A stretch of DNA of 51,216 bases, from contig JANJFQ010000003.1 in NCBI GenBank assembly GCA_025435355.1, positions 1 to 51,216 on the forward strand. Direction: 5' to 3'. The notes below the pieces were generated by a model. It had not been told where the DNA came from. It made no database searches and was given only the letters and a program-made list of their open reading frames with translations. The translations under genes and the position numbers were made by a program. Positions 12,984-45,221 of the stretch are shown here, in pieces (the first letter of the stretch is position 1; each line of letters starts with the position of its first letter). This DNA is from Candidatus Methanophagales archaeon. GTDB taxonomy: Archaea; Halobacteriota; Syntropharchaeia; Alkanophagales; Methanospirareceae.

Positions 12984-14984
12984 TTATTTACCCCATGGCC
13001 ATCTGACACCAAGACCCTCCTTTGGGAATGCTGTTGTAACTCCCCTCCCTTTCTCGATTATCCCCATTTCATCAACTCCGTTATTAAAACCGTGATCTAT
13101 GGGTCTGAATATGATTTTAGTTACATCTTGAGGATCTGGAGTACCCTTTTCTAACCCAGCCTCGATCATTTCTTCGACTTCATCCCAATCCATTCCTTCA
13201 GGGAATAGAGAAGTACCCCGCTCTGGAGAGCCATCTATATGTTTAAACTGGATATGTTTCTTTCCAAAACCGGGTTTCCATACACCATCAACAAAATAAT
13301 CTTCCTTACCAACTTTTATGACTGTTGTATCACTTACAACTTCGGTTCCGGCTTTAACACTCCTACTTGGAGCTTTCAACATCCTAACTAGCTGTTCTTC
13401 CCCAGCAGTTATATCGATGGGATCAATCCCCGTCCCCCTCACATATACCGCCAACTTCTCGGGATTAACCTTATTCATGTCAATGACATTCCACTCCACA
13501 CCCTTCGATGTTATCTCAACAATTTCTTCCTTATACTGCTTCACCAACGTATTAACAAACCCTTCGCCATGCTTCTTAAATATCTTCGCTAATCCTTTCT
13601 GTGCATCATCACCCCATTCTTTCAATGCTTTTCTGCCAATCTCTGACTTTGCCATCCACTCTGCTGTATCATCGGACATCTCAGCCAAGTTTTTACCTGC
13701 TCTATCAGCTTTACCCTTCCCTAAACTTTCCAGAAGTCCTTTCCCAGTTTGCTTATCAACGTTCTTTAAAGCCTTATTCCACCCATTTAGAGCCGGTTGA
13801 CTTAATTCATCCCACCACGGGACGTAATGTATGATGCCCAATTTAAATCCAACATCATCAAACCATTTAACCGTCCAACTGACACCACCTTTAACATATT
13901 CTACGGTACCATTTGCCTTTGTTTTTATAACCCGTCCCGTCTCGCCAATATCATCCACAAATTTTAGAGCACGACCTTTCCCAACGACCATAGCCAGGCC
14001 GTGACCAACAAATCCAGCAGGTATAAATGGAGATACAGCATCGCCAACAAGCATCGCCTCCTCGAACTTACACCTATCCGCAGCGGGTCCAGCATTCTCG
14101 CGGATTTCAGCAACACAGTTCCTTGTGTCACCAACACAGCCTTTTATCGCATTTACACATTGCGGAACGCCAAAAGAATCCTCTTCCTGGAACACGCACT
14201 TGCAGAACTCTTCCGTGCTCCATGCAACTGAAGCAACGTCAATAACAGCCATCGCAACAGCCACAGGCGCTATTTCAGGTGTAAAATCGTCAATTCGTGA
14301 GAAATTGGAGCAGTCGCCTTTTGATTGCGCCACACGCGATTCACCGGGCAGTGTTGCAATGAAATTAACAACTTCTTTTGATTCGTCCACGGTTATATCC
14401 CGCGATTTCTGATAATCTCCTTCGTAATCCAGATTCGTTATCCTGTATCTTATGTCTATGTGGTGATTGCCGTATGGGACATCCTCGATGTATGCATACC
14501 CAAAAGGATTGGTCAATGCCCTTTCTTCCCCATCCACATACACATAAACGTTCGCTACTGGATAGCCATTGATATTATCCACGTTTACCTGAAGGTCGCC
14601 TCTATGCGTGTCGCAGTCACAACCACCGGAATCACAACCCGCCTCGCTAAAACAATACCCTTCTTCATAACAGTAGTAATGCTCATTGTCTATCTCACAG
14701 CCGCACCCACTAAGAGTACCGCTACATGAGGGAGTGCATGAGTTGGGATAGCCAGATGGATTACATTCACCACCAGCATGGAAATAACAGGTTACCGTGC
14801 TTGTTGATAAGGTTGTGTAATCAGGTGTACTATCAACAGAATCTGAATGTATGTTTATTGGACTTTCAGATGTTACAGTCTCGCCACCCGACACTATGCC
14901 GCCGAAGAGCTGCGAACCCAGTAGTAACGCTATAATAAAAATCCCTATAATCGTATCCATCGCTTTGCTTTTTTCGCCTTTCAA
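12984..14984 (-). CDS. Secreted polymorphic-toxin-like protein with C-terminal EndoU/BECR-like RNase domain
   Basis: Signal peptide, Cys-rich segment, PEGA/carboxypeptidase-regulatory-like beta sandwich, two hydrophobic helices, C-terminal GKKHIQFKH...SLFP..MDW.EV..MI...VTTAFP. Confidence 0.65.
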   Translation of the reverse strand: MKGEKSKAMDTIIGIFIIALLLGSQLFGGIVSGGETVTSESPINIHSDSVDSTPDYTTLSTSTVTCYFHAGGECNPSGYPNSCTPSCSGTLSGCGCEIDNEHYYCYEEGYCFSEAGCDSGGCDCDTHRGDLQVNVDNINGYPVANVYVYVDGEERALTNPFGYAYIEDVPYGNHHIDIRYRITNLDYEGDYQKSRDITVDESKEVVNFIATLPGESRVAQSKGDCSNFSRIDDFTPEIAPVAVAMAVIDVASVAWSTEEFCKCVFQEEDSFGVPQCVNAIKGCVGDTRNCVAEIRENAGPAADRCKFEEAMLVGDAVSPFIPAGFVGHGLAMVVGKGRALKFVDDIGETGRVIKTKANGTVEYVKGGVSWTVKWFDDVGFKLGIIHYVPWWDELSQPALNGWNKALKNVDKQTGKGLLESLGKGKADRAGKNLAEMSDDTAEWMAKSEIGRKALKEWGDDAQKGLAKIFKKHGEGFVNTLVKQYKEEIVEITSKGVEWNVIDMNKVNPEKLAVYVRGTGIDPIDITAGEEQLVRMLKAPSRSVKAGTEVVSDTTVIKVGKEDYFVDGVWKPGFGKKHIQFKHIDGSPERGTSLFPEGMDWDEVEEMIEAGLEKGTPDPQDVTKIIFRPIDHGFNNGVDEMGIIEKGRGVTTAFPKEGLGVRWPWGK

Positions 14985-17253: not shown

Positions 17254-17829
17254 ATGCCAAAAAGAGCTCCTGACCCCATTACCGAGGAAGAGCTAAACAA
17301 AATCTTGGATGCTGCTATCGTGAATGATAGAGACTATCTGATATTAAGGCTACTTGCAAGAACTGGCATCCGTATAGGCGAGCTTTACGGTGTCTATAAG
17401 TGCGAGCGCGGGGAATGGATATACGGGATACAGAAGAAAGACATTGACTTCCGCAACAAAAGGCTGTGGGTATATTCGTTGAAGCAGAAGAGATATGTAA
17501 GAAGAGAGGTCCTTGCTGACGATGCCACTATGGTGTTGTTGAAGAGATACACAGAAAAGATGAAGCCCGAGGATTATGTTTTCAGAAGCATCTCGTATAG
17601 ACAAATTCAGAGGCTGCCGAAGAAGTATGCCCTGCAAGCAGGTGTAGATAAAAACGTGTCATGCCATTCCCTTCGACACTTCTTTATCACGCATTCCTGG
17701 AGAAAAGGGATAGACATTGCCAGACTCCAATACCTCGCAGGCCATGCTGACTTGAAAACCACAATGATATACACGCATGTGACGACAGAGGATGTGGAGA
17801 AAAAATATCGTGAGATATACGAGGAATAG
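17254..17829 (+). mobile_element. Tyrosine recombinase/integrase, catalytic domain only (191 aa)
   Basis: TGIRIGEL (R), HSLRH (HxxR), LAGHAD...TMIY (H, Y) catalytic residues intact. Confidence 0.9.
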
Positions 17830-17917
17830 GTTGTTATAAGCTACCCGTTTGTTATGGTTAAAAATCGAAAAGCATTTATATATACTCTGGAATTTGTGAT
17901 TTAGAAATATAGGTTAA

Positions 17918-18187
17918 TCATTCACCAGAAGTCGCATATATTTCATAAGGCATTATCTTCTTGTTCGCCTTCTTCTTCCCTCTCAACTTATTTACGAGGT
18001 CGGCGGCTTTCTCCTTCTTCTTCCGCTCCTTCAACCTCCCCATTATGCTCGCCATCTCTTTCGCCTTTCCCTCACTGCCGTATTCCTTCTCCTCCTCCTT
18101 TACATACTCACCATCTACATCCTCTTCCACCGCTATTTCCTCTTCTTCCTCTTCCATTCCTTCAAAAACCATTACACCTACACTCAC
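17918..18187 (-). CDS. Pup/UBact-like intrinsically disordered protein modifier ending in -SGE
   Basis: 89 aa, highly charged, C-terminus EIYATSGE, strong RBS GGAGGTG, immediately downstream of the Dop-like gene. Confidence 0.8.
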   Translation of the reverse strand: MSVGVMVFEGMEEEEEEIAVEEDVDGEYVKEEEKEYGSEGKAKEMASIMGRLKERKKKEKAADLVNKLRGKKKANKKIMPYEIYATSGE

Positions 18188-18255
18188 TTTAACTCCACCT
18201 CCTTACACTTTTATTACTTCTTTTTCTTGATAAAACTTTCCTCTTTTACCGTAAA

Positions 18256-19815
18256 CTAAGAAATTATCTTCTCAGGATATAATCTTTTCGCTGCTGATAA
18301 AACTTCCGCGATTTCTCTCCCCTCTTTCATTTCCGCCCCCATCTCTTCCTTATTCAGTATAAACGGCTCGTCCAGTATTATTTTCGCTTCGTTAAGCACC
18401 ATCGTTGACCAGCTAACACTTCTCACGTGTGACCCGTACCCTTTCAACATCTCAACCTTGAAAAAGTCCCTCGTATGCTCAGGTGCATTATCCAATGCAT
18501 ATTTTACTCTATCGGATAAAGAAGACCAATCAACCTGCGGCAGTTCTTTCTTTGCAAATGCCAGCGACTCCTTCGGATTGAAAAGACAACTACCTTTTGT
18601 ACTCTCTTCTTCGTCCACAATGTAGTACAGCACGCTCTCATCCAGCAATGCATACTGGTTACAAATGCTTATTCCTTCAAAGGCGCTTTTTGGCTCATAA
18701 TTCACAAGCAGTGCCAGTTTCGTCACCCAGTCTATCCCATCCACATATTCTTCCACTCGCCGAGCTTCCAGCTTCTCTATCACTTCCTCTAAACTCCTTT
18801 TACCTATTTCATCCCACTTTCCTTCTTCTCCCATCTCTTCATACATCTTCTCTATTCCCTCGAGATAAAACCGGAGAATAGAAACGGCATCTGTCATCTC
18901 CTCGTTCTTCAACTTTATCTTCCACTCGCATTCCTGTGTATCCGCTGATATTTTCTTGAATGCCCTCACCGGGTCGTCTATCTCCGGCGCATCGTCCAGG
19001 AAGCCCAATTCAAATGCACAAATTACCATCGCTTGCGCGACATCACGCAAGAAAATTGCGTATTCGGAACGAAGTGCCTCATAATGTATATCGTGCAGTC
19101 GCCAGTATTGACGTGCCGCATGAGGCTGGTCTCTCGTGTTCAAGATGCCTCTACCCGAGGTAGTGGCAAGAGAAGACTTCTGAACAACAAACATCGCTCT
19201 TGGCGAAATAACAAACTTCACCCCTTCTTTACCAATGGTGTCCCCGGAAACAACATCCCCGGACCCAGTGAACAATATTCTCGTGACGACCCAGGGTATT
19301 AGCGCTTTTTCTACACGACTCCAATCCTTGCACGCCTCTCTTTTTGTTATTATATTCCCGTGCGTAGAATAGGTCTTGGTTTTTACTTTTTTACCTTTGC
19401 CATCGCTACTACGATTGGCGACATTATTTTTATGAACAACCACTTTCTTCTTTAAAGCCAGACTTGCCTCCCTTGACCCCACAAAAGCATATATCTCTGA
19501 TGCTTTATCGTATGCCACGGCATCAAAGGGATTATTGTAAGAGGGTGTCGCTATTTCAAGATGCCCCATATCGTTATAAATCCGACAGCCGTTATCACCA
19601 TACGAAGACGTTATCCTCGATTCATGCGCTTCTTGAGATACCTCCGTAATTAGGTCCCACATTACATCCCTTGAAAATCCTCTCCTTTTTAAACCTTGAA
19701 TCGCGGCGTTAGCGAGCAGAGAAGGATTTGAAATCGCTTTTGCACTCACGGGATATTCCTGCTCTATTCCTCTTATCTTATTTTCTGTTCCTCCTTCCTT
19801 CTTTCTCGCACTCAT
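18256..19815 (-). CDS. dop: Dop-like depupylase/deamidase (Pup-ligase family)
   Basis: GIEQEY, NP.L, WD, NGCRIYND.GH.E, P.DAV..DKA, KNNV...DGKG, TGSG, L.TT..RGILNTRDQPHA, RLH resemble actinobacterial Dop. Confidence 0.8.
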   Translation of the reverse strand: MSARKKEGGTENKIRGIEQEYPVSAKAISNPSLLANAAIQGLKRRGFSRDVMWDLITEVSQEAHESRITSSYGDNGCRIYNDMGHLEIATPSYNNPFDAVAYDKASEIYAFVGSREASLALKKKVVVHKNNVANRSSDGKGKKVKTKTYSTHGNIITKREACKDWSRVEKALIPWVVTRILFTGSGDVVSGDTIGKEGVKFVISPRAMFVVQKSSLATTSGRGILNTRDQPHAARQYWRLHDIHYEALRSEYAIFLRDVAQAMVICAFELGFLDDAPEIDDPVRAFKKISADTQECEWKIKLKNEEMTDAVSILRFYLEGIEKMYEEMGEEGKWDEIGKRSLEEVIEKLEARRVEEYVDGIDWVTKLALLVNYEPKSAFEGISICNQYALLDESVLYYIVDEEESTKGSCLFNPKESLAFAKKELPQVDWSSLSDRVKYALDNAPEHTRDFFKVEMLKGYGSHVRSVSWSTMVLNEAKIILDEPFILNKEEMGAEMKEGREIAEVLSAAKRLYPEKIIS

Positions 19816-19973
19816 TAGCCTTTGTGGTAATTTTATTTTTATAAATTTTTTATCTTCGCATTCTATACCTTCCTAATTCAACAATAGTTACTGCATTCTC
19901 TAACTCTTTTACATCAAGGAGAGTTAGGAATTCTCTTAAAACTTTATCAACGCCCCAAAAACTTCATCTACCA

Positions 19974-21737
19974 TTATATCTCTTCTTCCTTTTCATTCCC
20001 CTTCTTCTCCTCTCTCCTTATCTCCTCTGCCTTCTCCTTTATACTCCCCCCATCCCACCCATCCAGTTCATCAAATCTATAAGTTTTGTTATTGGAATAC
20101 AGCAAATAGTCTAAATACGGATTCCTGACGATTCTGTTTCTTATTTCTCTGCTTATCTCCTCCTCCCAGCCCCTTATGTCCCCCTCCTCTGCAAGCAATC
20201 GCACGAGAACCTGCCTTGTTCCTTCCCCGCTCCTCCTCTCTCGCAAAAACACCACCACTGCACTTGGCATCCTCGCAAGTTCCGGATACCTCTCAAATAG
20301 CCTCGAATATTCTTCCCCAGTCGGCCTACTCACATCTATCCTTACCTTTGGCTCCCTGTTTATCGTTATCTTATTCCAGCTCAGGACAGCATTCTCGAAT
20401 TCTGACGCAAGTCTTACCCTTAGCTCGGCTCTCGAATCCTTTGGCGGGAACAATAACGCTTCCCCTATCTCCTCTTCCGTTAGTATTCGCTCCACCCCCA
20501 CCCTATCCACCACTTGCTCGTATAAGTCATAATCACAGAGATTGGCGAAATCAAACGATGCCGCTATCTCTTTCTCCACACGCTCATCCATCATGTATAT
20601 GCTCCGGTAATCAAACTTCCCCTTTGACGTGCATTTATATTCAAAATCATCTATCTCATTCTTTATCACCCATAACTTCATCACCCATTCTAAACGCCGC
20701 ACCACGTATGGGTCTTCAAGCAATCCCTGCTCGAATTTGTCACAAATCTTCTTGAACGTATCCAAAACGTATTTGTCCCAGTAAGATGTCTCTCGTTCCT
20801 CAAACAACTCCTCTATCACCGTAAGATAATAACAATTAAGATAATCAATCGCGGACTGAGTCCTCCCATTCATTAACTTTATCCGCCAATCACCTTCGGT
20901 ATTCACCGAAATATCTTTGAATGTTTGAAGCGGATTCCAGATGTCCTCTACATGCGAGATATTCCCTGTTTCTATTGCATCTATTACATACGATGTGAGG
21001 GCATTATTGAGCAGCCGTGTAACCTCAGAGCGAACACCCTCACCCGATGTAACATGGACACGATATTTATCCTTTGTACTCAACGGCTCGTCTCGTGTAG
21101 ATAATATAGGCCATTGAGAAGGCGACTCCGTGAGAACACGCTTCGAAACCATCGCTTTCGGCGAAATCACATATCTTATCCCTTCTTTTTCCGCTATAAA
21201 CCCGCCAGCGCCAAAGAATATCTTCCGAAGCACTAAAAACGGTATGAGCAAATTCTCTTTACCCGCAAATTTCTTCCTCTCCACCATGTATGATTCGTGC
21301 GTGCCCCGGCTATACCTCTTGTCTATCTCCACATTTGCTTTCCAGCATTGGATGCGTGCAGGGTTATTCCCTCTCTTCTTCAACTTTTCCCTGTATCTTT
21401 CATTTGCTTTCTCCACGCCTATCTGCATGTACAACTCCGACGCCTTATCGTATTTCAGCACCTCAAAAGCATTTCGGCATTCAGGCGTGGCTATCTCTAA
21501 GTGACCTCCAGTGCAGATGTAAATCCGAGAGCCATTTCTCAAAAAGCCATCGTTCCTCCTCCGTAACTTCGAGCATATCGCATCCGCTCCATCAAAAAAA
21601 GTATAATTCTCAAGTGCATGAATCACTTCATCCACATGATAAAATCTCGCATACCTGTACAAGCCAGGCGATTCTGAACTTATGCCCACTCTAAATTCGT
21701 GCTCTAACCCCTGCCATTTGTTCAAATCCTCCCCCAT
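19974..21737 (-). CDS. pafA: PafA-like Pup ligase homolog (divergent active site)
   Basis: GLEHEF, FLRNGSRIY..GGH.E.ATPEC, GTHESY, LIPFLV.R...GAG, STRDEP, YRVHV; ATG at 21737 is 1 nt past the ATPase stop. Confidence 0.75.
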   Translation of the reverse strand: MGEDLNKWQGLEHEFRVGISSESPGLYRYARFYHVDEVIHALENYTFFDGADAICSKLRRRNDGFLRNGSRIYICTGGHLEIATPECRNAFEVLKYDKASELYMQIGVEKANERYREKLKKRGNNPARIQCWKANVEIDKRYSRGTHESYMVERKKFAGKENLLIPFLVLRKIFFGAGGFIAEKEGIRYVISPKAMVSKRVLTESPSQWPILSTRDEPLSTKDKYRVHVTSGEGVRSEVTRLLNNALTSYVIDAIETGNISHVEDIWNPLQTFKDISVNTEGDWRIKLMNGRTQSAIDYLNCYYLTVIEELFEERETSYWDKYVLDTFKKICDKFEQGLLEDPYVVRRLEWVMKLWVIKNEIDDFEYKCTSKGKFDYRSIYMMDERVEKEIAASFDFANLCDYDLYEQVVDRVGVERILTEEEIGEALLFPPKDSRAELRVRLASEFENAVLSWNKITINREPKVRIDVSRPTGEEYSRLFERYPELARMPSAVVVFLRERRSGEGTRQVLVRLLAEEGDIRGWEEEISREIRNRIVRNPYLDYLLYSNNKTYRFDELDGWDGGSIKEKAEEIRREEKKGNEKEEEI

Positions 21738-21738
21738 T

Positions 21739-23373
21739 TTAAAAATGCATTCCCGTTTCTTCTTCCGGCATTCCCTCATACCCTGATGCTAATATCTCCT
21801 CCGCTCTTCTCTGCACAAACTTGTCAAATCCCTCTTTTAGGTGTCCCATGCTCACCCCTATATCCTCTATGCGTTTATACTTCTTCTGCAAATCATTCGT
21901 CTTGCTTCCCGCATCTAATATCACTTCAATTCTTTCATTATCCCACATTCTCTTCATATCCCCACTGCTGATATCTCCTTTTTTCAACATTAGCAATGTC
22001 CTCTCCTCCAATGCCTTATCCCTCGCATAGTTGAATATCTGGGCTATAAACCGCCCGGTTATCGTATCCGCCCTCCTTATCCGCCCTATTTCCGTCTCAA
22101 CATAAGTATCACTGTACATATAGCCGACCATCTCCCTAACCAGATACGCCCTCGCCTCTTCTTCTCCACCCCTTTCCTTTACCAGGTAGCAGTCAATAGG
22201 AATATTTTTAGCATATAAGGAGGCAATGGAATATGCAGCTTCCTTATCAGGTGCTGGAACCTCAATTATCTTGTCAAATCTCGCCCTGAATGCGGAATCT
22301 ATAAGATACAACCTGTTCGTCGCTCCTATCACCGTAAGGTGTGGATGCAGAGCATGGAAACCCTCCAACAGGTCCAGTAGTTGCCCGGTAACTCTCTCCG
22401 GCGCTCCCGAGGAACCTGTGTACATGCCCCTTTCCTGTGCTAACGCATCTATCTCGTCAAAGAAGATTACACCATAGTCATTTTCCCCTTCCTCTAATTT
22501 AGCGTTCGCAGTCTTGAACACCATTCTCACATTCTTCTCTGATTCGCCAAGCCACATGCTGAAAAGCTCTCCTGCTCCTACCTTCATAAATTCACAATTC
22601 GGTAATGCGGATGCCAACGCCTTTGCACACATCGTTTTCCCGCATCCTGGCGAACCATACAGAAGTATCTTTCTCGAACCTTCTCCATATTTTGTGTAAT
22701 CGTCAGGATTTATCATCGGAAGAACAATGCTCTTTATTAATTCCTGTTTTACCTCCTTCAAGCCCCCAATGTCATTAAAACTCACCTCAGGGCTCTTCGT
22801 GACTTCATAGCGGGAGAATTCCTTTGTCTTGTAACTCTTCTTTATGTCAAACGTGCCGGGGAGAAGTCCTACCTTCATCCCCTCTTTTATCTCTTCCTTC
22901 TCTTCTTCTCTTAGCTTTTTATATAATCTACCACGTCCTTTTCCCGTGGATATTTCAACTATCCATTCATCTTCAGTGTCGTCCTTCCTCAACTCCTCTA
23001 TCTCCCCCACCTCTAAATCCACCATCCGGTCATATACCTTCGTGATTCCTATGGTAAATCCACTGGGGTTATTCCTATCCGGGATGCGCCCTATGAAGAC
23101 ATATTTCCCTTCTTGTAGCTCCCTTATTTCTTCCTCAGTAAGCGTTCCGTATGGCAAAGCCTTTAACGCACCATTCAAATTCACGATGGCGCCCTCATCA
23201 GTCTTTTCCACTACGAATCCACAGTCTAAAGGCGGTGACCTCGCTTTTGACACAAGTTTCTCCAAATCAGCTTTATACGCTTCTGTCTCCTCGTATTTCC
23301 TCCTCAACCGCCGGTAGTCACTCTCTAACCGTTCATATTCGTATCTTGGAATATAGTCCACCCTTTCTCCCAT
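21739..23373 (-). CDS. arc: ARC/Mpa-like proteasome-associated AAA+ ATPase
   Basis: N-terminal coiled coil ending SPP, long (probably double OB) interdomain, DIGGL, GSPGCGKT, IFFDEID, GATNR, ITG..IA.I, C-terminal TGMHF; heads the pafA-dop-pup operon. Confidence 0.8.
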   Translation of the reverse strand: MGERVDYIPRYEYERLESDYRRLRRKYEETEAYKADLEKLVSKARSPPLDCGFVVEKTDEGAIVNLNGALKALPYGTLTEEEIRELQEGKYVFIGRIPDRNNPSGFTIGITKVYDRMVDLEVGEIEELRKDDTEDEWIVEISTGKGRGRLYKKLREEEKEEIKEGMKVGLLPGTFDIKKSYKTKEFSRYEVTKSPEVSFNDIGGLKEVKQELIKSIVLPMINPDDYTKYGEGSRKILLYGSPGCGKTMCAKALASALPNCEFMKVGAGELFSMWLGESEKNVRMVFKTANAKLEEGENDYGVIFFDEIDALAQERGMYTGSSGAPERVTGQLLDLLEGFHALHPHLTVIGATNRLYLIDSAFRARFDKIIEVPAPDKEAAYSIASLYAKNIPIDCYLVKERGGEEEARAYLVREMVGYMYSDTYVETEIGRIRRADTITGRFIAQIFNYARDKALEERTLLMLKKGDISSGDMKRMWDNERIEVILDAGSKTNDLQKKYKRIEDIGVSMGHLKEGFDKFVQRRAEEILASGYEGMPEEETGMHF

Positions 23374-23492: not shown

Positions 23493-24551
23493 ATGAAAGA
23501 GGAGAAAAGAAAAATACAGCTCACAGGCGGTTCAACTCTCACTATATCGCTACCTATAAAATGGGCGAGAGAAGCGGGTTTAAAGCAAGGAGATGAGCTC
23601 TCTTTAATCCAACGCAGTGATAACTCCCTCGTCATAACACCGGAGAAGAAGGAAAAAGACCAGATAAAATCCGCTGAGTTCGAGTTCTCGGAGGAAGAAA
23701 GCTTTGAAGACAACTTCAGGTATCTTATCGCTTATTACCTCGTTGGATACGACCTCGTAAAGCTTTTATCTCCCAACGGTTTCGGGGCTGAAGAAAGGAA
23801 GAGGATAAAGGAGGAGGTGAGGAAGAGGCTGATAGGCATGGAGGTCGTTGGAGAATCGTCAAGGGAAATAGCACTCCAAAGCTTTTTAAAATACGAAGAT
23901 TTTACACTTAGAGATGCGATACGGAGCATGTCTGAAATAATATTGTCAATGCATGCAGATGCGATTTCTTCGCTCAAAGAAAGCGACGCGAACCTTGCGG
24001 AAGATGTTATAGAGCGCGATAACGAGATAGACAGATTTTATTTACTTATTGTAAGGCAGCTCAAAGCTGCGATGAGCGACCCCGATCTTGCAAGGAAGAT
24101 AGGCGTGGGCAGGCAGCGCGACAGCCTGGGATACAGGATAATAGCAAAGTGCATGGAGAGGATAGGCGACCATGTAGAGAATATAGCGAAGAATTCCTGG
24201 ATGATAAATCCAAAAAGCACCGTATCGGGACCTGTATCCTTCGGGGGCAAAAGCTTAGAAGGCATAAAGGAAATCGGCTTCCGTGCCGAAAACCTGTTCA
24301 ATAAGACTCTGGCTTCCTTATCGAATACGAATATGAAAGAGGCGAATGAAGCGATAAGGGATGCAAATGCGCTGATAAATAAGTTAGAGGGAATAAATGA
24401 GCGGGTTCTGGCAGAAGAGCTGAGTATTACAGATAAAATACACGTTCTTTCTATCCTGGAGAGTTTGGGAAGAATAGCGAAGTATTGCACAGATATAGCA
24501 GAGGTAACGATAAATAGGGGGACAAAAATAGCAGGAGAATTGGAGTTTTAA
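23493..24551 (+). CDS. Phosphate uptake regulator (AbrB + PhoU domains)
   Basis: RKIQLTGGST..ISLP..W, YL.GYD, D.EIDRFY.L..RQL, ERIGDH. Confidence 0.9.
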   Translation: MKEEKRKIQLTGGSTLTISLPIKWAREAGLKQGDELSLIQRSDNSLVITPEKKEKDQIKSAEFEFSEEESFEDNFRYLIAYYLVGYDLVKLLSPNGFGAEERKRIKEEVRKRLIGMEVVGESSREIALQSFLKYEDFTLRDAIRSMSEIILSMHADAISSLKESDANLAEDVIERDNEIDRFYLLIVRQLKAAMSDPDLARKIGVGRQRDSLGYRIIAKCMERIGDHVENIAKNSWMINPKSTVSGPVSFGGKSLEGIKEIGFRAENLFNKTLASLSNTNMKEANEAIRDANALINKLEGINERVLAEELSITDKIHVLSILESLGRIAKYCTDIAEVTINRGTKIAGELEF

Positions 24552-40500: not shown

Positions 40501-42096
40501 TCAGGTTGTAAATCGCTTGTAAATTCTCGTTATTTTATCAGGAAGTTTTACAACATCATCTATCACAACCCATCTGCTATTGGCATACATTCGTGGCAAA
40601 TACTCAGCAGCTTTACGGTCAACAGTAATACAAAACGACTTGATACCATATCTTTGTGCTTCCTTTAATGCCATTCTCGTATCTTCAATGGCGTAATTTC
40701 CATAATAATCCTGGTCTAATGGCTTACCATCACTCAATAGAATAAGCATTTTTGTCTTTTCTTCTCTTCTTCTTAATTTAGTTGTGGTGTGCCGGATTGC
40801 AGGAGCAATTCTCGTAGTTTGTTGATTCCTCATTGCTGAAATTTTGCGTTGCACACGCGGGTCATAAGAGTCATCAAAACCTTTAATTTTATAAAAAACC
40901 ACATTATCTCTTCCATACCCGGAGAATCCGTAAATAGCAAAAGCATCGCCTAATTCTTCCAATGCTTCAGACATTAATATCAATGCTTCTTTTTCACACG
41001 TTATTGTTGAGCCGCCCGTACTACCACTCATGTCAACGAGAAATGCTACTGCTATATCCCTAATTCTTTTTTTAGTTCGTACATAGTTTCTTTCAGAAGG
41101 TGAGAGTCTTAGTCTCTTATCAATAAAATATTGAACCGCTGAATCCAGGTCAATATCATCTCCATCAAATTGACCCCTTAATTTTACTAAACCCTCTGGT
41201 CTGAGCATTTGGAATTCTCGCCTGATGCTCTTTATCACTCCTGCATGCTTCTGAATTGTGTCAAGATAGAATTCATCTGAACCACCCGCTAAAATTCGTT
41301 CTCTAATCCTCGTCCAATTTAATCTATAATCTTTAATGTCACTACCCCATTCATGATATAAATAAGTATCCTGCTCGCTTTGAAGTTCATTTTCAGCTCT
41401 AATTAACGTTTCAAGGTCTCTTAAATAATCTTTCACCTTGTTTGGCTCAAGAGCATCAATTCTTGACTCGACGTCTTTGGGTTTGATTCCTTTTTCTTTG
41501 AACAATACTCTTAACAGTTCCCTTACTGCATCTTCTGAAGTGTAATTATCTTTTTTATCATCGTTTAAAGGACTTTTGTCTGGCTCGCTATTTAGTTTCT
41601 CACTAATTTTTCGTGCTGCTCTTCCAAAATTGCCTATATTTTGATTGACCCGAGATTGGTCTAAAGGTGCTGAAAAAGGATTCATCGGTAGATAGGGCTC
41701 TTGAAAATTGTCAGCTATCAAAAAATATAATTCAACAGTAACCCTTGCTGTTTCGTGGACATCTGCATCCGGAGAAGATAAAGTTCGGGTTATTGATAAA
41801 GCTTGAGCAAGAGTTTGCAGAAAATTTTCCGGAACTTGTTCTTTTGTTCTTCCGGCAGTTAACCGCTGCGCTATAATCTCTACTGCTCTTTGTTTATCAT
41901 TAGCTAATTCATCAAGAAAAGGCCTTTTAGAAACCATGTAAACGTTCATTTCTGCTATTTGTTCACCAAGAGCAGGATATTCTGCCTGCAGCCGTGAATT
42001 GATTCTATGATCTTCAAGTATGGTTATGAGATCCTTCGCTAACGCAGGCTCAGGAAAGAGTTCATAAAATTTTTCTATGTCGCTAATGCCGGTCAT
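40501..42096 (-). CDS. NorD/CbbO-like VWA protein (C-terminal half)
   Basis: Y.EW......YR..W, DGDDIDLD, MIDAS VDMSGS, TR...AIRH, LSDGKP.D, YAIEDTR.A. Confidence 0.9.
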   Translation of the reverse strand: MTGISDIEKFYELFPEPALAKDLITILEDHRINSRLQAEYPALGEQIAEMNVYMVSKRPFLDELANDKQRAVEIIAQRLTAGRTKEQVPENFLQTLAQALSITRTLSSPDADVHETARVTVELYFLIADNFQEPYLPMNPFSAPLDQSRVNQNIGNFGRAARKISEKLNSEPDKSPLNDDKKDNYTSEDAVRELLRVLFKEKGIKPKDVESRIDALEPNKVKDYLRDLETLIRAENELQSEQDTYLYHEWGSDIKDYRLNWTRIRERILAGGSDEFYLDTIQKHAGVIKSIRREFQMLRPEGLVKLRGQFDGDDIDLDSAVQYFIDKRLRLSPSERNYVRTKKRIRDIAVAFLVDMSGSTGGSTITCEKEALILMSEALEELGDAFAIYGFSGYGRDNVVFYKIKGFDDSYDPRVQRKISAMRNQQTTRIAPAIRHTTTKLRRREEKTKMLILLSDGKPLDQDYYGNYAIEDTRMALKEAQRYGIKSFCITVDRKAAEYLPRMYANSRWVVIDDVVKLPDKITRIYKRFTT

Positions 42097-42237
42097 TTAC
42101 GCTCACTATATTTGCCTCATTGGTATTCGGTTAAGAGTGTTTGCGCTCTTATATTTATATTTGTATCTATTCAGGTTTTTTAAAGTTGTTTACCAAGGAA
42201 GAAATACTTTTAAATTTATTATGATGCAAGGAAAGAA

Positions 42238-42444
42238 TTGGATTTCGTTTACCAGCGTGAAAATAGCGAATATCACGGAATAGAGGTGAAATACAAGCCG
42301 AAAGTGTCATTTACGGATGTCGCCTCCATTAACATGCCAAAGCTGATATTGAGCAAAAAAGAGTTTGATACAAAGGGGGATATTGCAATTGTTCCTGCTT
42401 ACGTTTTTCTGTGCTTGCTGGAAAGTTCTGTGAAGAATTTGTAA
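42238..42444 (+). pseudogene. C-terminal remnant of an ATP-binding (DUF4143-type) protein
   Basis: KELDFV...GIEVKY...IVPAYVFL with no N-terminus. Confidence 0.55.
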
Positions 42445-42449
42445 GCGTT

Positions 42450-42646
42450 AAAAGGGTTAGGCGGTCGGCGAGCGAGTGAGGAGTGGTCATAAGCGTGGAT
42501 TTGCGGCATCGCGAAAATATTTCAGGGAGCTTATTAGGATAAGTTCTATGGGGCTATGAAAGAGCGGTTTAGGTATGCGAGGGCGTATTCGCCCACCGCG
42601 ACTCGTAAAGGATGTGCGGAGGTTTATTTATGTGGTTGGGAAAGGT
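42450..42646 (+). pseudogene. Degraded, internally deleted second copy of rlmE
   Basis: Matches rlmE at 7074-7703: GVVISVDL.H joined to AKIFQGAY*DKFY.A..E.FRY.RAYSP.A.RK..AEVY. Confidence 0.85.
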
Positions 42647-42781
42647 TACAAAGGATTGGTTATGCAAGATTATTCCTAAGTTTCGACTCCTATCAAGACG
42701 TAAAAGTAAAAGTCCATGTCGAAGCTTAGATATAAAGATGACGAACTTGTGGGAATTACCATATTGGAGGCTTCTAAGTGG

Positions 42782-44377
42782 TCATTTAATACCTTCACGC
42801 TCACCATACTTCGCCTTTATTTTATCAGCGACATCCTGAACTCTCCTCAGCTCAAAATCAAAACTGCCATATTCCAAATGAGCTTCTTCATGTGTCGCCA
42901 AAACTTTGTACATAATGAAATTTTTAGCTTCTTCTTTGAAATCTTTAACTCTTCCCGGAAGAAAGATTCGCTCACCGTCGGTTGTGGCTCCCTGTGCTTC
43001 CACAATCTCGATTCTGTAACCTAATAATGCATTCAGATAATGTAACAAAACAGGTTTTACGCGCTTCAGCTCAAGACCATCTGTGATAGAATCAAAAAAA
43101 TCTGCATATTCAGAAGACTCGCCTTTCACAAAAGACGTTGCTTTCTCTTCCCCTTCCATCTTTGCTATTTCTGAAGCCTGGTGAGCTACCTTCTCCAAAC
43201 CTTCATAATCCGCTCTACCGATGAGGTCTGGACTCTCCTCAAGCAAACTAACCGCAGTTCGCACGCTATACCTGGCAACTCGACTACTAAGTCCATAAAC
43301 ATCCTTAACTAACTCTTTATCTCCATACCTCAACAATCTATCAATGAGTGCCGGACTCAGCCCAAGCAACCTGACAGCAGTTCTCCAATTATAATCCCTG
43401 GCGACCTGACTACAAAAACCATAAACAGTTGTAACTAATTCTTTATCCCCATATCCCAGCAATCTATCAATGAGTGCTGGACACTCATCAAGCAACTTAG
43501 CGGCAATAAATCTATCATCTTTGTCGACCTGAGTACAAAGACCGGCAACCTCCTCTAAAACATCATATCCAACTTTATCTATGAGTGCTGGACTCATCTC
43601 AAGCAACCGGGCAGCAACAAAACTATCTTCCTGAGCGACCTGAGTACAAAGACCGGCAACCTCCTCTAAAACATCATATCCAACTTTATCTATGAGTGCT
43701 GGACTCAGCCCAAGCAACCTAACCGCAGTTCTCCCACTATAGTTAGCAACCTGACTACTAAGTCTTGCAATCTTCTCTAAACCTTCATATCCTACTCTAT
43801 CTATGAGTGCTGGGCTCATCTCGAGCAATCTAGCAGCAATAAATCTACGATCGTTTGGGACCTGAGTACAAAGACTGGCAATCTTCTCTAAACCTTCATA
43901 GCCTACTCTATCAACGAGATCTGGACATATCCCAAGCAACTTAGCAGCGACAAAACTATCTTCCTGGACTACCAGAGTACAAAGACCGGCAATCTTCTCT
44001 AAACCTTCATAGCCTACTCTATCTATGAGTATTAGACTCATCTCAAGCAACCGGGCAGCAGTTCCTCCACTATACCTGGCGACCGGACTACAAAGACCAT
44101 AAACATTAAGAACTAATTCTTTATCGCCATAGTTTAGCAATCTATCTATGAGCTCAGGGCTCATCTCAAGCAAACTAACCGCAGTTCGCACACTATGATC
44201 TTTGGCGATCTGGCTACAAAGACCAACAACCTTCTCTAAACCTTCATATCCAATTCTGTCGAGCAAAGGATATAATTCGCCAACTAATTTCTCAAGAACT
44301 TCACCTTCGTAATACTCATTAAGTAGTTTCCTTATTTTTCGCACTCCAAAAGCCCTCTTGATAGAAATCCATGCCAT
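42782..44377 (-). CDS. Tandem helical-repeat protein fused to NorD/CbbO-type N-terminal segment with HExxH
   Basis: About 10 repeats of 37-42 aa, then TDGERIFLP...YKVLATHEEAHLEYGSF. Confidence 0.8.
   Translation of the reverse strand: MAWISIKRAFGVRKIRKLLNEYYEGEVLEKLVGELYPLLDRIGYEGLEKVVGLCSQIAKDHSVRTAVSLLEMSPELIDRLLNYGDKELVLNVYGLCSPVARYSGGTAARLLEMSLILIDRVGYEGLEKIAGLCTLVVQEDSFVAAKLLGICPDLVDRVGYEGLEKIASLCTQVPNDRRFIAARLLEMSPALIDRVGYEGLEKIARLSSQVANYSGRTAVRLLGLSPALIDKVGYDVLEEVAGLCTQVAQEDSFVAARLLEMSPALIDKVGYDVLEEVAGLCTQVDKDDRFIAAKLLDECPALIDRLLGYGDKELVTTVYGFCSQVARDYNWRTAVRLLGLSPALIDRLLRYGDKELVKDVYGLSSRVARYSVRTAVSLLEESPDLIGRADYEGLEKVAHQASEIAKMEGEEKATSFVKGESSEYADFFDSITDGLELKRVKPVLLHYLNALLGYRIEIVEAQGATTDGERIFLPGRVKDFKEEAKNFIMYKVLATHEEAHLEYGSFDFELRRVQDVADKIKAKYGEREGIK
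43160..44266 (-). repeat. Intragenic tandem repeat array, 111-126 bp units (9 full + 1 partial)
   Basis: About 70 bp identical at 43526-43596 and 43637-43707 (111-bp period); protein unit LIDRVGYEGLEKIAGLCTQV.....AARLLEMSPA. Confidence 0.9.
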
Positions 44378-44390
44378 TTTCTGTCAGCAG

Positions 44391-45221
44391 TTACACGTTA
44401 AAGTAATTTTTGAGGATTTCTTCTATGCTTCTTTTGAGGTCACTATCGTGAGTTAAAGGCTCTGTCATAGTTGAATATAGCGCATCTCTCATTGGTACCC
44501 CACTTTTTAGCAAGGTGGCAGCATAAACAAGTTCTCTGGTAGAAACACCTTCTTCGAGCCCTTGTTGAATAAGGTTTCTTATTTTATTCGCAGCTTTTAC
44601 CAACCTTTTTGCAGTATCTTGTTCAACACCCGTCTCTTGATGCACAATTTGAGTTTCTAAGCCTTCACCTGGCCATCCGAGCGCGATGCTTACAAACCTC
44701 TGTCTTGTACTTTGTTTCAATTCTTTTAAGACACTCTGGTAACCCGGATTATAACTAATTACCAGCATAAAGTCATCTGGAGCATAGAACATCTTTCCTA
44801 ACTTCTCAACCAGCAAATATCTCCTATGATCCGTTAATGGATGAATGACGACAGTTGTATCTTTTCTTGCTTCCACGACTTCATCCAGATAAACGATTCC
44901 ACCATTTTTTACAGCCATAAGAAGAGGACCATCAATCCACTCAACATCGTCTCCTTTAATGATATACCTTCCGGTTAAGTCATTTCCACTTAAATCATCA
45001 TGACAAGCAACAGTATAGAGCGGGCAACCTAACTTCCAGGCCATATGCTCAACTAATCTTGTTTTACCACTTCCCGTAGGTCCCTTCAGCATAACCGGAA
45101 GTTTATTCATATAGGCAGCTTCAAATAGCGCAACCTCGTTCCCTTGCGGTAAATAAAAAGGCTCCTCTTTTATTTCAAAGCTACCATCTTCATATAATCT
45201 TGAGTCCAATCTCTCTAACAT
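44391..45221 (-). CDS. MoxR AAA+ ATPase, CbbQ/NirQ/NorQ family
   Basis: [74 protein letters not shown]. Confidence 0.93.

Follow-up and report, generated by a model that had tools for sequence, protein, structure and literature searches.

To our knowledge, protein tagging with the small modifier Pup is regarded as a bacterial, mainly actinobacterial, invention, and archaea are credited with β-grasp modifiers of the SAMP and Urm1 types only. The hallmark of Pup is a C-terminal glutamate that is ligated via its γ-carboxylate, and forms ending in glutamine require deamidation (PMC8599861; this and the other sources are cited from excerpts of their text). The role of the conserved aspartate in the two related enzymes, PafA and Dop, is debated, the residue being viewed as a base, a water activator or a nucleophile (PMC12288473), and the lineages given in the excerpt of Iyer 2008 (PMC2588565) are bacterial only. 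Here, we describe a locus in a 51,216-nucleotide stretch of DNA (contig JANJFQ010000003.1, positions 1 to 51,216; hereafter the window) from a Candidatus Methanophagales archaeon, where four tightly packed genes on the minus strand encode, in this order, an AAA ATPase, two PafA/Dop-family enzymes (P2 and P1) and a small, highly charged protein (SM). P2 has a cysteine, Cys75, at the position of the catalytic aspartate. We propose, with about even confidence, that P2 and P1 form the enzymatic core of an archaeal tagging system of four genes that resembles the Pup system, with P2 as the ligase and this cysteine in place of the aspartate.

The four-gene module is fixed in the ANME-1/Methanophagales order. 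Genes of the Pfam family Pup_ligase (PF03136) occur in all genomes of the order's two families (38/38 and 2/2) and in 0/260 other genomes of the phylum sample, with the same picture in a smaller sample (36/36, 2/2 and 0/22). The order AAA ATPase-P2-P1-SM is syntenic in the loci compared, and the source names of the closest homologs include Methanophagales archaeon and ANME-1 cluster archaeon. SM lies immediately downstream of P1 in 19/20 loci with enough flank. Three further genomes, one from the same family and the two of the sister family, have retained it on a different contig; it was not found in one genome, which is 87% complete. The whole of an order of environmentally important anaerobic methanotrophs would accordingly possess a complete Pup-style module, consisting of an unfoldase, two enzymes of the glutamine-synthetase fold and a Glu-ended modifier. 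Automatic annotations already name P1- and P2-type proteins ‘Pup--protein ligase’ or ‘PafA2 family’, and SM is annotated as hypothetical. In the full-text literature, with most subscription journals outside the scope of the search and some items judged by titles and abstract openings, we found no description of an archaeal PafA/Dop system, of the Cys variant or of the modifier. If our reading is right, an archaeal lineage has invented its own Pup-like tag, with a modifier of no detectable kinship to Pup.

The catalytic loop and active sites of P2 and P1

The P2 segment RIYICTGGHLEIATPEC aligns without gaps to RLYLDVGSHPEYATAEC of C. glutamicum PafA (4b0t). Since this alignment is ungapped, Cys75 of P2 corresponds to PafA Asp64, in agreement with a preliminary description of the P1-P2 region that had been made by eye. 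A one-gap alignment to Dop (4b0r, RLYVD-HAHPEYSTPE) places Cys75 opposite Asp94. Inspection of the loop in the alignment revealed no Asp or Glu between R71 and the metal-binding E81, ruling out a substitute acidic residue, the alternative against which the preliminary description had set its claim. Conservation among orthologs had been chosen beforehand as a check, and 115 of the 120 listed P2 homologs carry the cysteine, at identities down to 46%; the other five are fragments that are gapped at the site. Across 16 loci the codon is TGC (15) or TGT (1), and the change from Asp to Cys (GAY to TGY) takes two base changes. As the residue is fixed in all covering homologs, with TGC or TGT codons in the 16 loci, a sequencing error or a strain-specific change can be ruled out as its origin.

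In the family as a whole, the column is nearly always aspartate. Among the best 150 cluster representatives of the whole PF03136 family, drawn from 2098 hits at E-values up to 0.001, it holds D in 135, C in 2, H, Q, E and I in one each and a gap in 9, i.e. aspartate in 135/141 aligned representatives. The nearest relatives outside the order have either Asp (P0121, P0345, P0347) or His (~30 clusters) in this column. The His-type clusters (P0346-P0376) are ~442 residues long with the loop LCYIH-SNLFEVCTPE, and three of them are named Candidatus Bathyarchaeota. The column thus varies between D, H and C from clade to clade and is fixed inside each clade, and these natural variants in related archaea offer a ready-made experiment on the role of the aspartate. 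A metagenome scan for relatives of P0121, the nearest Asp-bearing relative, found none.

P2 retains the GhExE motif (E12, E14), E81, H147, the Arg of TRDEP and the His of RVHV. The latter two are the counterparts of Dop R227 and H241, which hold the catalytic phosphate (PMC8599861). According to the motif definitions excerpted from Iyer 2008 (PMC2588565), GhExE is located on core strand 1 and [HQ]x[NH] on core strand 4. The former is present in both proteins (GIEQEY in P1, GLEHEF in P2), each of its two Glu columns being E in 136/140 aligned representatives. The HGN of P1 fits the latter; the HES of P2 has Ser in third place and is off the 2008 motif, yet it is common to 63/144 representatives. 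Two further features of P2 that had been put forward as non-canonical proved to be ordinary: at the column where TRDEPL ends, L outnumbers every other residue (L 71, H 54), and many residues share the second place of KANV (N 65, S 20, T 12, G 11, C 10, A 7). Because the nucleotide, metal and phosphate apparatus is intact and the cysteine unchanging, P2 is most likely an active enzyme, as judged from its residues.

The aspartate in the loop after the R-x-Y strand, lost from P2, is present in P1 as Asp82, and P1 also retains GhExE, E87, H152-x-N154, the Arg and the His. As first described, P1 keeps the Asp in RIYNDMGH and has HGN for HEN; RIYNDMGH, THGN and TRDQPH are invariant in 19/19 aligned ANME-1 P1 sequences, save one TRDQAH. 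Both deviations are rare in the family, where the Glu column of HEN is E 139, G 3 and Q 2, and that of TRDEP is E 122 and Q 5. The changed residues are equivalent to Dop E156 and E229.

Both proteins have an N-terminal insert of intermediate length, ~20-24 positions longer than in the PafA model and 12-19 shorter than in the Dop model. The yardstick was the Dop loop, which is ~40 residues long and whose conserved Trp enters the nucleotide pocket; in Dop this residue, W47, is functionally important (PMC8599861). The short Dop loop noted earlier in P1 is confirmed, at ~12 positions below the Dop model, and the P2 insert is of nearly the same length. Trp53 in the P1 insert is conserved (19/19 ANME-1 P1 sequences, plus P0140 and P0150), and no alignment supports its equivalence to W47. 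In the catalytic loop, the D-x-x-H spacing of P1 is that of Dop, whereas the loop of P2 has the length seen in PafA.

Some Methanophagales encode a third, stand-alone Cys-type Pup_ligase paralog of ~490 residues, with RIYIC[NHD]-SLPE at the loop and no recognisable TRDEP motif. This paralog (P0118 clade) was considered as a second system and rejected: its neighbours are unrelated (tRNA-binding, nucleotidyltransferase, macro domain, GatD-like), and no AAA ATPase or SM gene adjoins it.

Relationship to PafA and Dop

The match of both proteins to PF03136 bears out the adjacent pair of PafA/Dop-family enzymes reported previously; the operon context, with an AAA ATPase and a Pup-like modifier gene, goes beyond that account. 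P1 scores 220.5 bits over positions 1-440 of the 441-position Pfam model and P2 205.3 bits over positions 66-439, against a cut-off of 25 bits. The NCBIfam equivalog models are far from being reached: with PafA TIGR03686 (cut-off 551.3 bits) P2 scores 166.1 and P1 147.7 bits, and with Dop TIGR03688 (cut-off 492.3 bits) P1 scores 192.4 and P2 170.4 bits. AlphaFold 2 models of P2 (pLDDT 87.7, pTM 0.88) and P1 (pLDDT 95.0, pTM 0.95) both have Dop and PafA as their top Foldseek matches, at probability 1.00 and E-values of 1e-20 to 1e-30. For P2 the outcome is a near-tie between Dop 7oxy (E 3.1e-30, target TM-score 0.76) and PafA 4bjr_B (E 1.7e-28, 0.73), with target TM-scores ranging over 0.72-0.88 for Dop and 0.70-0.73 for PafA. 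P1 is clearly nearer to Dop (0.81-0.87 overall, 0.85-0.87 for the matches at E 6e-29) than to PafA (0.71-0.75, E 2e-22).

Phylogenetic trees (FastTree of 139 rows; IQ-TREE of 50 rows, LG+C20, short search, SH-aLRT support only) cluster the P1-type and P2-type proteins with other poorly known sequences. Canonical Dop, canonical PafA and an ‘HES’ clade lie across a split supported at 97-98%, and Dop and PafA group together; the clade labels were verified with NCBIfam. Since both P1 and P2 fall outside the canonical clades, the pair stems from a separate duplication, apart from the PafA/Dop split, and the two proteins are best regarded not as orthologs of Dop and PafA. The labels ‘Dop-like’ and ‘PafA-like’ given to them earlier consequently fail as statements of orthology, by the trees as well as the equivalog cut-offs, and survive as a reasonable but weak functional guess, P1 being Dop-like in fold and score and P2 PafA-like in loop length. 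The ‘HES / HTKDEPL / RLHLICGE’ clade (P0146-P0268) is a large Pup_ligase group distinct from canonical PafA and Dop, with many members of 700-850 residues.

P2 resembles PafA (4b0t, 4bjr) in Pfam family, fold and catalytic loop length (x-T-G-G-H vs D-V-G-S-H), in GhExE, the metal-binding Glu, H-E-x, the Arg and the His, and in a predicted groove for a small Glu-ended protein. It differs in having Cys for the catalytic Asp, in its score (166 bits vs a cut-off of 551), in its place outside the PafA clade, in an N-terminal insert of ~20 residues and a C-terminal extension of ~115, and in its archaeal host. Neither PafA nor Dop nor the stand-alone paralog has this extension (residues ~470-587), and no Pfam family matches it; a YRFDELDGW motif is conserved within it, it ends in a long acidic helix, and residues 490-522 are modelled at pLDDT below 50. 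P1, in turn, is similar to Dop (4b0r, 7oxy, 7oy3) in fold, in the Asp, in the length of the D-x-x-H loop, in an N-terminal insert with a conserved Trp and in the position of its gene next to a modifier gene. It differs from Dop in score (192 bits vs a cut-off of 492), in lying outside the Dop clade, in the insert shorter by ~12 positions, and in HGN for HEN and TRDQPH for TRDEPH.

The modifier, the unfoldase and the roles of the enzymes

SM has a variable, acidic N-terminal half and a conserved, basic C-terminal half that ends in KKIMPYEIYATSGE. The latter is nearly invariant (KEKAADLVSKLRGKKKxNKKIMPYEIYAT[SA]G[EQ]), and all 76 SM homolog clusters end in [SA]G[EQ], with Glu in 73 and Gln in 3. 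Like Pup, and like UBact of some Gram-negative phyla, SM is small, charged and probably disordered, with a conserved C-terminal part for which binding to the enzyme groove is predicted; it ends in Gly-Glu or Gly-Gln, and its gene neighbours a PafA-family gene. Unlike them, it ends in S/A-G-E rather than G-G-E/Q and its C-terminal half is strongly basic. A search of the ESM Atlas with SM was uninformative (best score 0.79).

When P2 was modelled in complex with SM residues 40-89, the score was 0.87, against 0.02 for the best of three controls; the mark used, which was reached by 116/157 solved complexes and by 2/215 mismatched pairs, is rough here, as custom alignments were used. Contacts agreed between runs by at least 67%, and the partner had a pLDDT of at least 78. 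In the model, SM residues 57-89 run along the helical groove of P2, with residues 75-89 all in contact, and the interface on P2 comprises E14, R16 and residues 75-79, from Cys75 to His79. The model supports, as a prediction, binding of the SM tail in the P2 groove with the C-terminal residue in the active site.

In the AAA ATPase, a single AAA module follows an N-terminal segment of coiled-coil-like character. The protein reaches neither the cut-off of the NCBIfam PAN subfamily (172.4 bits, cut-off 500) nor that of the Mpa/ARC model pup_AAA TIGR03689 (151.8 bits, cut-off 504.75), the match to the latter extending from residue 33 to 456 over model positions 30-456 of 512. Elsewhere, the genome encodes the 20S proteasome α and β subunits and a canonical PAN (contig C181, 588 bits); the operon ATPase would therefore be an extra, Mpa/PAN-like unfoldase. 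All 11 of 11 loci share its C-terminal tail, E[ED]TGMH[FY], which may be a proteasome-docking motif comparable to HbYX or to the GQYL of Mpa.

Taken together, the homology, fold, residue identities, conservation, synteny and distribution shown here suggest a model of how the module may operate, in which conjugation itself, the choice of the ligating paralog and the thioester are inferred. The conserved C-terminal half of SM would bind the helical groove of the enzymes and place its terminal Glu in the active site, where P2, like PafA, would phosphorylate the γ-carboxylate with its ATP, Mg and phosphate residues. Cys75 would take over the job of the Asp, either as a base for the incoming lysine or by forming a transient γ-glutamyl thioester that the lysine resolves. 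The Asp-bearing and more Dop-like P1 would be the deamidase and deconjugase, and the 20S proteasome would receive tagged proteins from the AAA ATPase. An exposed catalytic thiol may be tolerable given the strictly anoxic life of these archaea.

With a thiolate beside an acyl phosphate, we judge the thioester route somewhat likelier than the base. Attack of an active-site Cys on a γ-glutamyl or aspartyl phosphate is known from the glutamyl-phosphate and aspartate-semialdehyde dehydrogenases, and γ-glutamyl phosphate reductase, aspartate-semialdehyde dehydrogenase and ubiquitin E1/E2 provide precedent for a thioester that is resolved by another nucleophile; these enzymes have folds unrelated to that of P2, for which the thioester is a proposal only. 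The specific version, in which P2 is a ligase with covalent thiol catalysis that captures the γ-glutamyl phosphate on Cys75 and passes it to lysine, in the manner of E1/E2 but of independent origin on a glutamine-synthetase fold, is less likely than not, and we advance it tentatively. If true, tagging of proteins by way of thioesters would have originated a second time, independently.

Several observations weigh against a tagging system with P2 as a thiol ligase. The D/H/C pattern in the related archaeal clades would fit a general base better than a nucleophile. P2 scores slightly higher on the Dop model (170.4 bits) than on the PafA model (166.1 bits), and since P1 and P2 belong to neither canonical clade in the trees, an assignment of ligase and depupylase by likeness is weak. 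For SM, no similarity to Pup or to any other family was detected with Pfam or NCBIfam; a scan of 37 members against Pfam at E-values up to 10 gave no Pup family and only low-complexity noise. Finally, the pass of the complex model may partly reflect memory of the groove, because Pup-PafA and Pup-Dop complexes have already been solved.

The preliminary description had offered three mechanisms, i.e. thiol-based ligation, swapped roles or an inactive partner, and these are not separable by sequence, except that the last is disfavoured. Swapped roles are rather doubtful but the best of the alternatives. Here P1 would be the ligase, and P2 a deconjugase and deamidase whose Cys75 attacks the isopeptide or amide bond to give a thioester acyl-enzyme, a thiol version of the ‘aspartate amidase’ model of Dop. 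P1 does keep every directly catalytic family residue, the three Gln-ended SM clusters of 76 need a deamidase, and P2 matches Dop first among structures as well as marginally in the profile scores. In one published model the Asp of Dop attacks the isopeptide directly (PMC12288473), and a Cys would be the better nucleophile for this. Against such an exchange, it is clearly P1 that stands closer to Dop, judged by score, by fold, by the length of its loop and by the conserved Trp of its insert, and the loop of P2 has PafA length. A plain thiol amidase would also have no need for the full ATP and phosphate apparatus of P2, a weak objection as Dop keeps the same apparatus.

Loss of catalysis in P2 is an unlikely explanation. 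P2 would then be coupled to the ATPase as a receptor or adaptor for SM, and P1 alone would carry out both ligation and deconjugation, a combination made conceivable by the ability of PafA to depupylate as well (PMC12288473). P2 lacks an Asp that is held to be essential (PMC3511204, PMC12288473), and in the solved PafA-Pup complex a 4bjr chain with Asn at this position still has Pup bound. The start of P2 immediately after the ATPase stop codon and its extra C-terminal segment of ~115 residues would also suit an adaptor. A protein that only binds is, however, unlikely to keep GhExE, E81, H147, the Arg, the His and the Cys in 115/115 homologs down to 46% identity, and the fixation of D, H or C within each clade is what one would expect if the residue worked in catalysis. 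An inactive partner is thus the less favoured reading, because P2 keeps all checkable nucleotide, metal and phosphate residues together with a Cys that does not drift.

Very improbable, finally, is the absence of any tagging system, with the enzymes making or breaking a small-molecule γ-glutamyl amide and the small open reading frame unrelated to them: the fold is common to YbdK/GCS2 and the glutamine synthetases and SM has no recognised family, but Foldseek matches to Dop and PafA are ~20 orders of magnitude better than to GCS2, the pupylation-defining C-terminal domain is covered (the Pfam match runs to position 440 of the 441 in the model), SM occurs together with the enzymes throughout the order and has a fixed [SA]G[EQ] end, the complex model passes (0.87 vs 0.02), and an AAA unfoldase gene heads the operon.

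The locus and its surroundings

The features discussed are collected in the table. The ATG of P2 that is used by most homologs lies 1 nt past the stop codon of the AAA ATPase gene and gives a protein of 587 residues; an upstream ATG at 21779 would give 601. GGAGGTG stands directly 5' of the GTG start of SM. P1 and P2 are the only PF03136 copies in the genome. Transcript-library contigs of close relatives (90-99% alike; 3 runs of one study) span the AAA ATPase gene, P2 and parts of P1, which is weak support for expression as such contigs are no proof of transcription. No RNA-library contigs covered SM (17900-18267), a result that is uninformative on its expression.

Table. Positions in the window of the genes, codons and neighbouring features named in the text; the stand-alone paralog is given by locus or contig.
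Feature	Position	Strand	Remarks
AAA ATPase	21739-23373	-	544 aa; PF00004 117.5 bits
Conserved C-terminal tail of the AAA ATPase	21739-21760	-	candidate docking motif
P2, Pup_ligase-family enzyme with Cys75 at the catalytic Asp position	19974-21737	-	587 aa; PF03136 205.3 bits
Cys75 codon of P2 (TGC), in place of the catalytic Asp	21513-21515	-	alignment to PafA/Dop
C-terminal extension of P2	19974-20330	-	~115 residues
P1, Pup_ligase-family enzyme	18256-19815	-	519 aa; PF03136 220.5 bits
Asp82 codon of P1	19570-19572	-	aligned catalytic Asp
Gly153 codon of P1	19357-19359	-	residue in HGN motif
Gln230 codon of P1	19126-19128	-	residue in TRDQPH motif
SM, candidate Pup-like modifier	17918-18187	-	89 aa, highly charged; no family match
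Terminal Glu codon of SM	17921-17923	-	C-terminal end of SM
Tyrosine recombinase family gene	17254-17829	+	191 aa; Phage_integrase
MazE/AbrB-PhoU fusion gene	23493-24551	+	
Cys-rich protein gene	12984-14984	-	666 aa
AAA_5 ATPase and two following genes	40501-45221	-	ATPase at 44391-45221
Stand-alone Cys-type paralog	L033:2039-3523	+	
Stand-alone Cys-type paralog	L034:4884-6079		
Stand-alone Cys-type paralog	L035; L036		
Stand-alone Cys-type paralog	G024:C14; G010:C1; G012:C56		

The locus is flanked by housekeeping genes of the usual archaeal kinds (enolase, TrpA, SerA, L32e, SRP54, ProRS, MtrH). A tyrosine recombinase family gene is convergent with SM; besides it, no further sign of a mobile element was noticed, and the G+C content is even through the region. 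On the other side, a gene for an N-terminal MazE/AbrB-type domain fused to PhoU domains is divergent from the AAA ATPase gene. Elsewhere in the window, a 666-residue protein combines an N-terminal hydrophobic segment with a Cys-rich region and has no Pfam match, and a CbbQ/NirQ-type AAA_5 ATPase is followed by two 531-residue proteins, one with a VWA domain, in an arrangement that resembles MoxR-VWA pairs.

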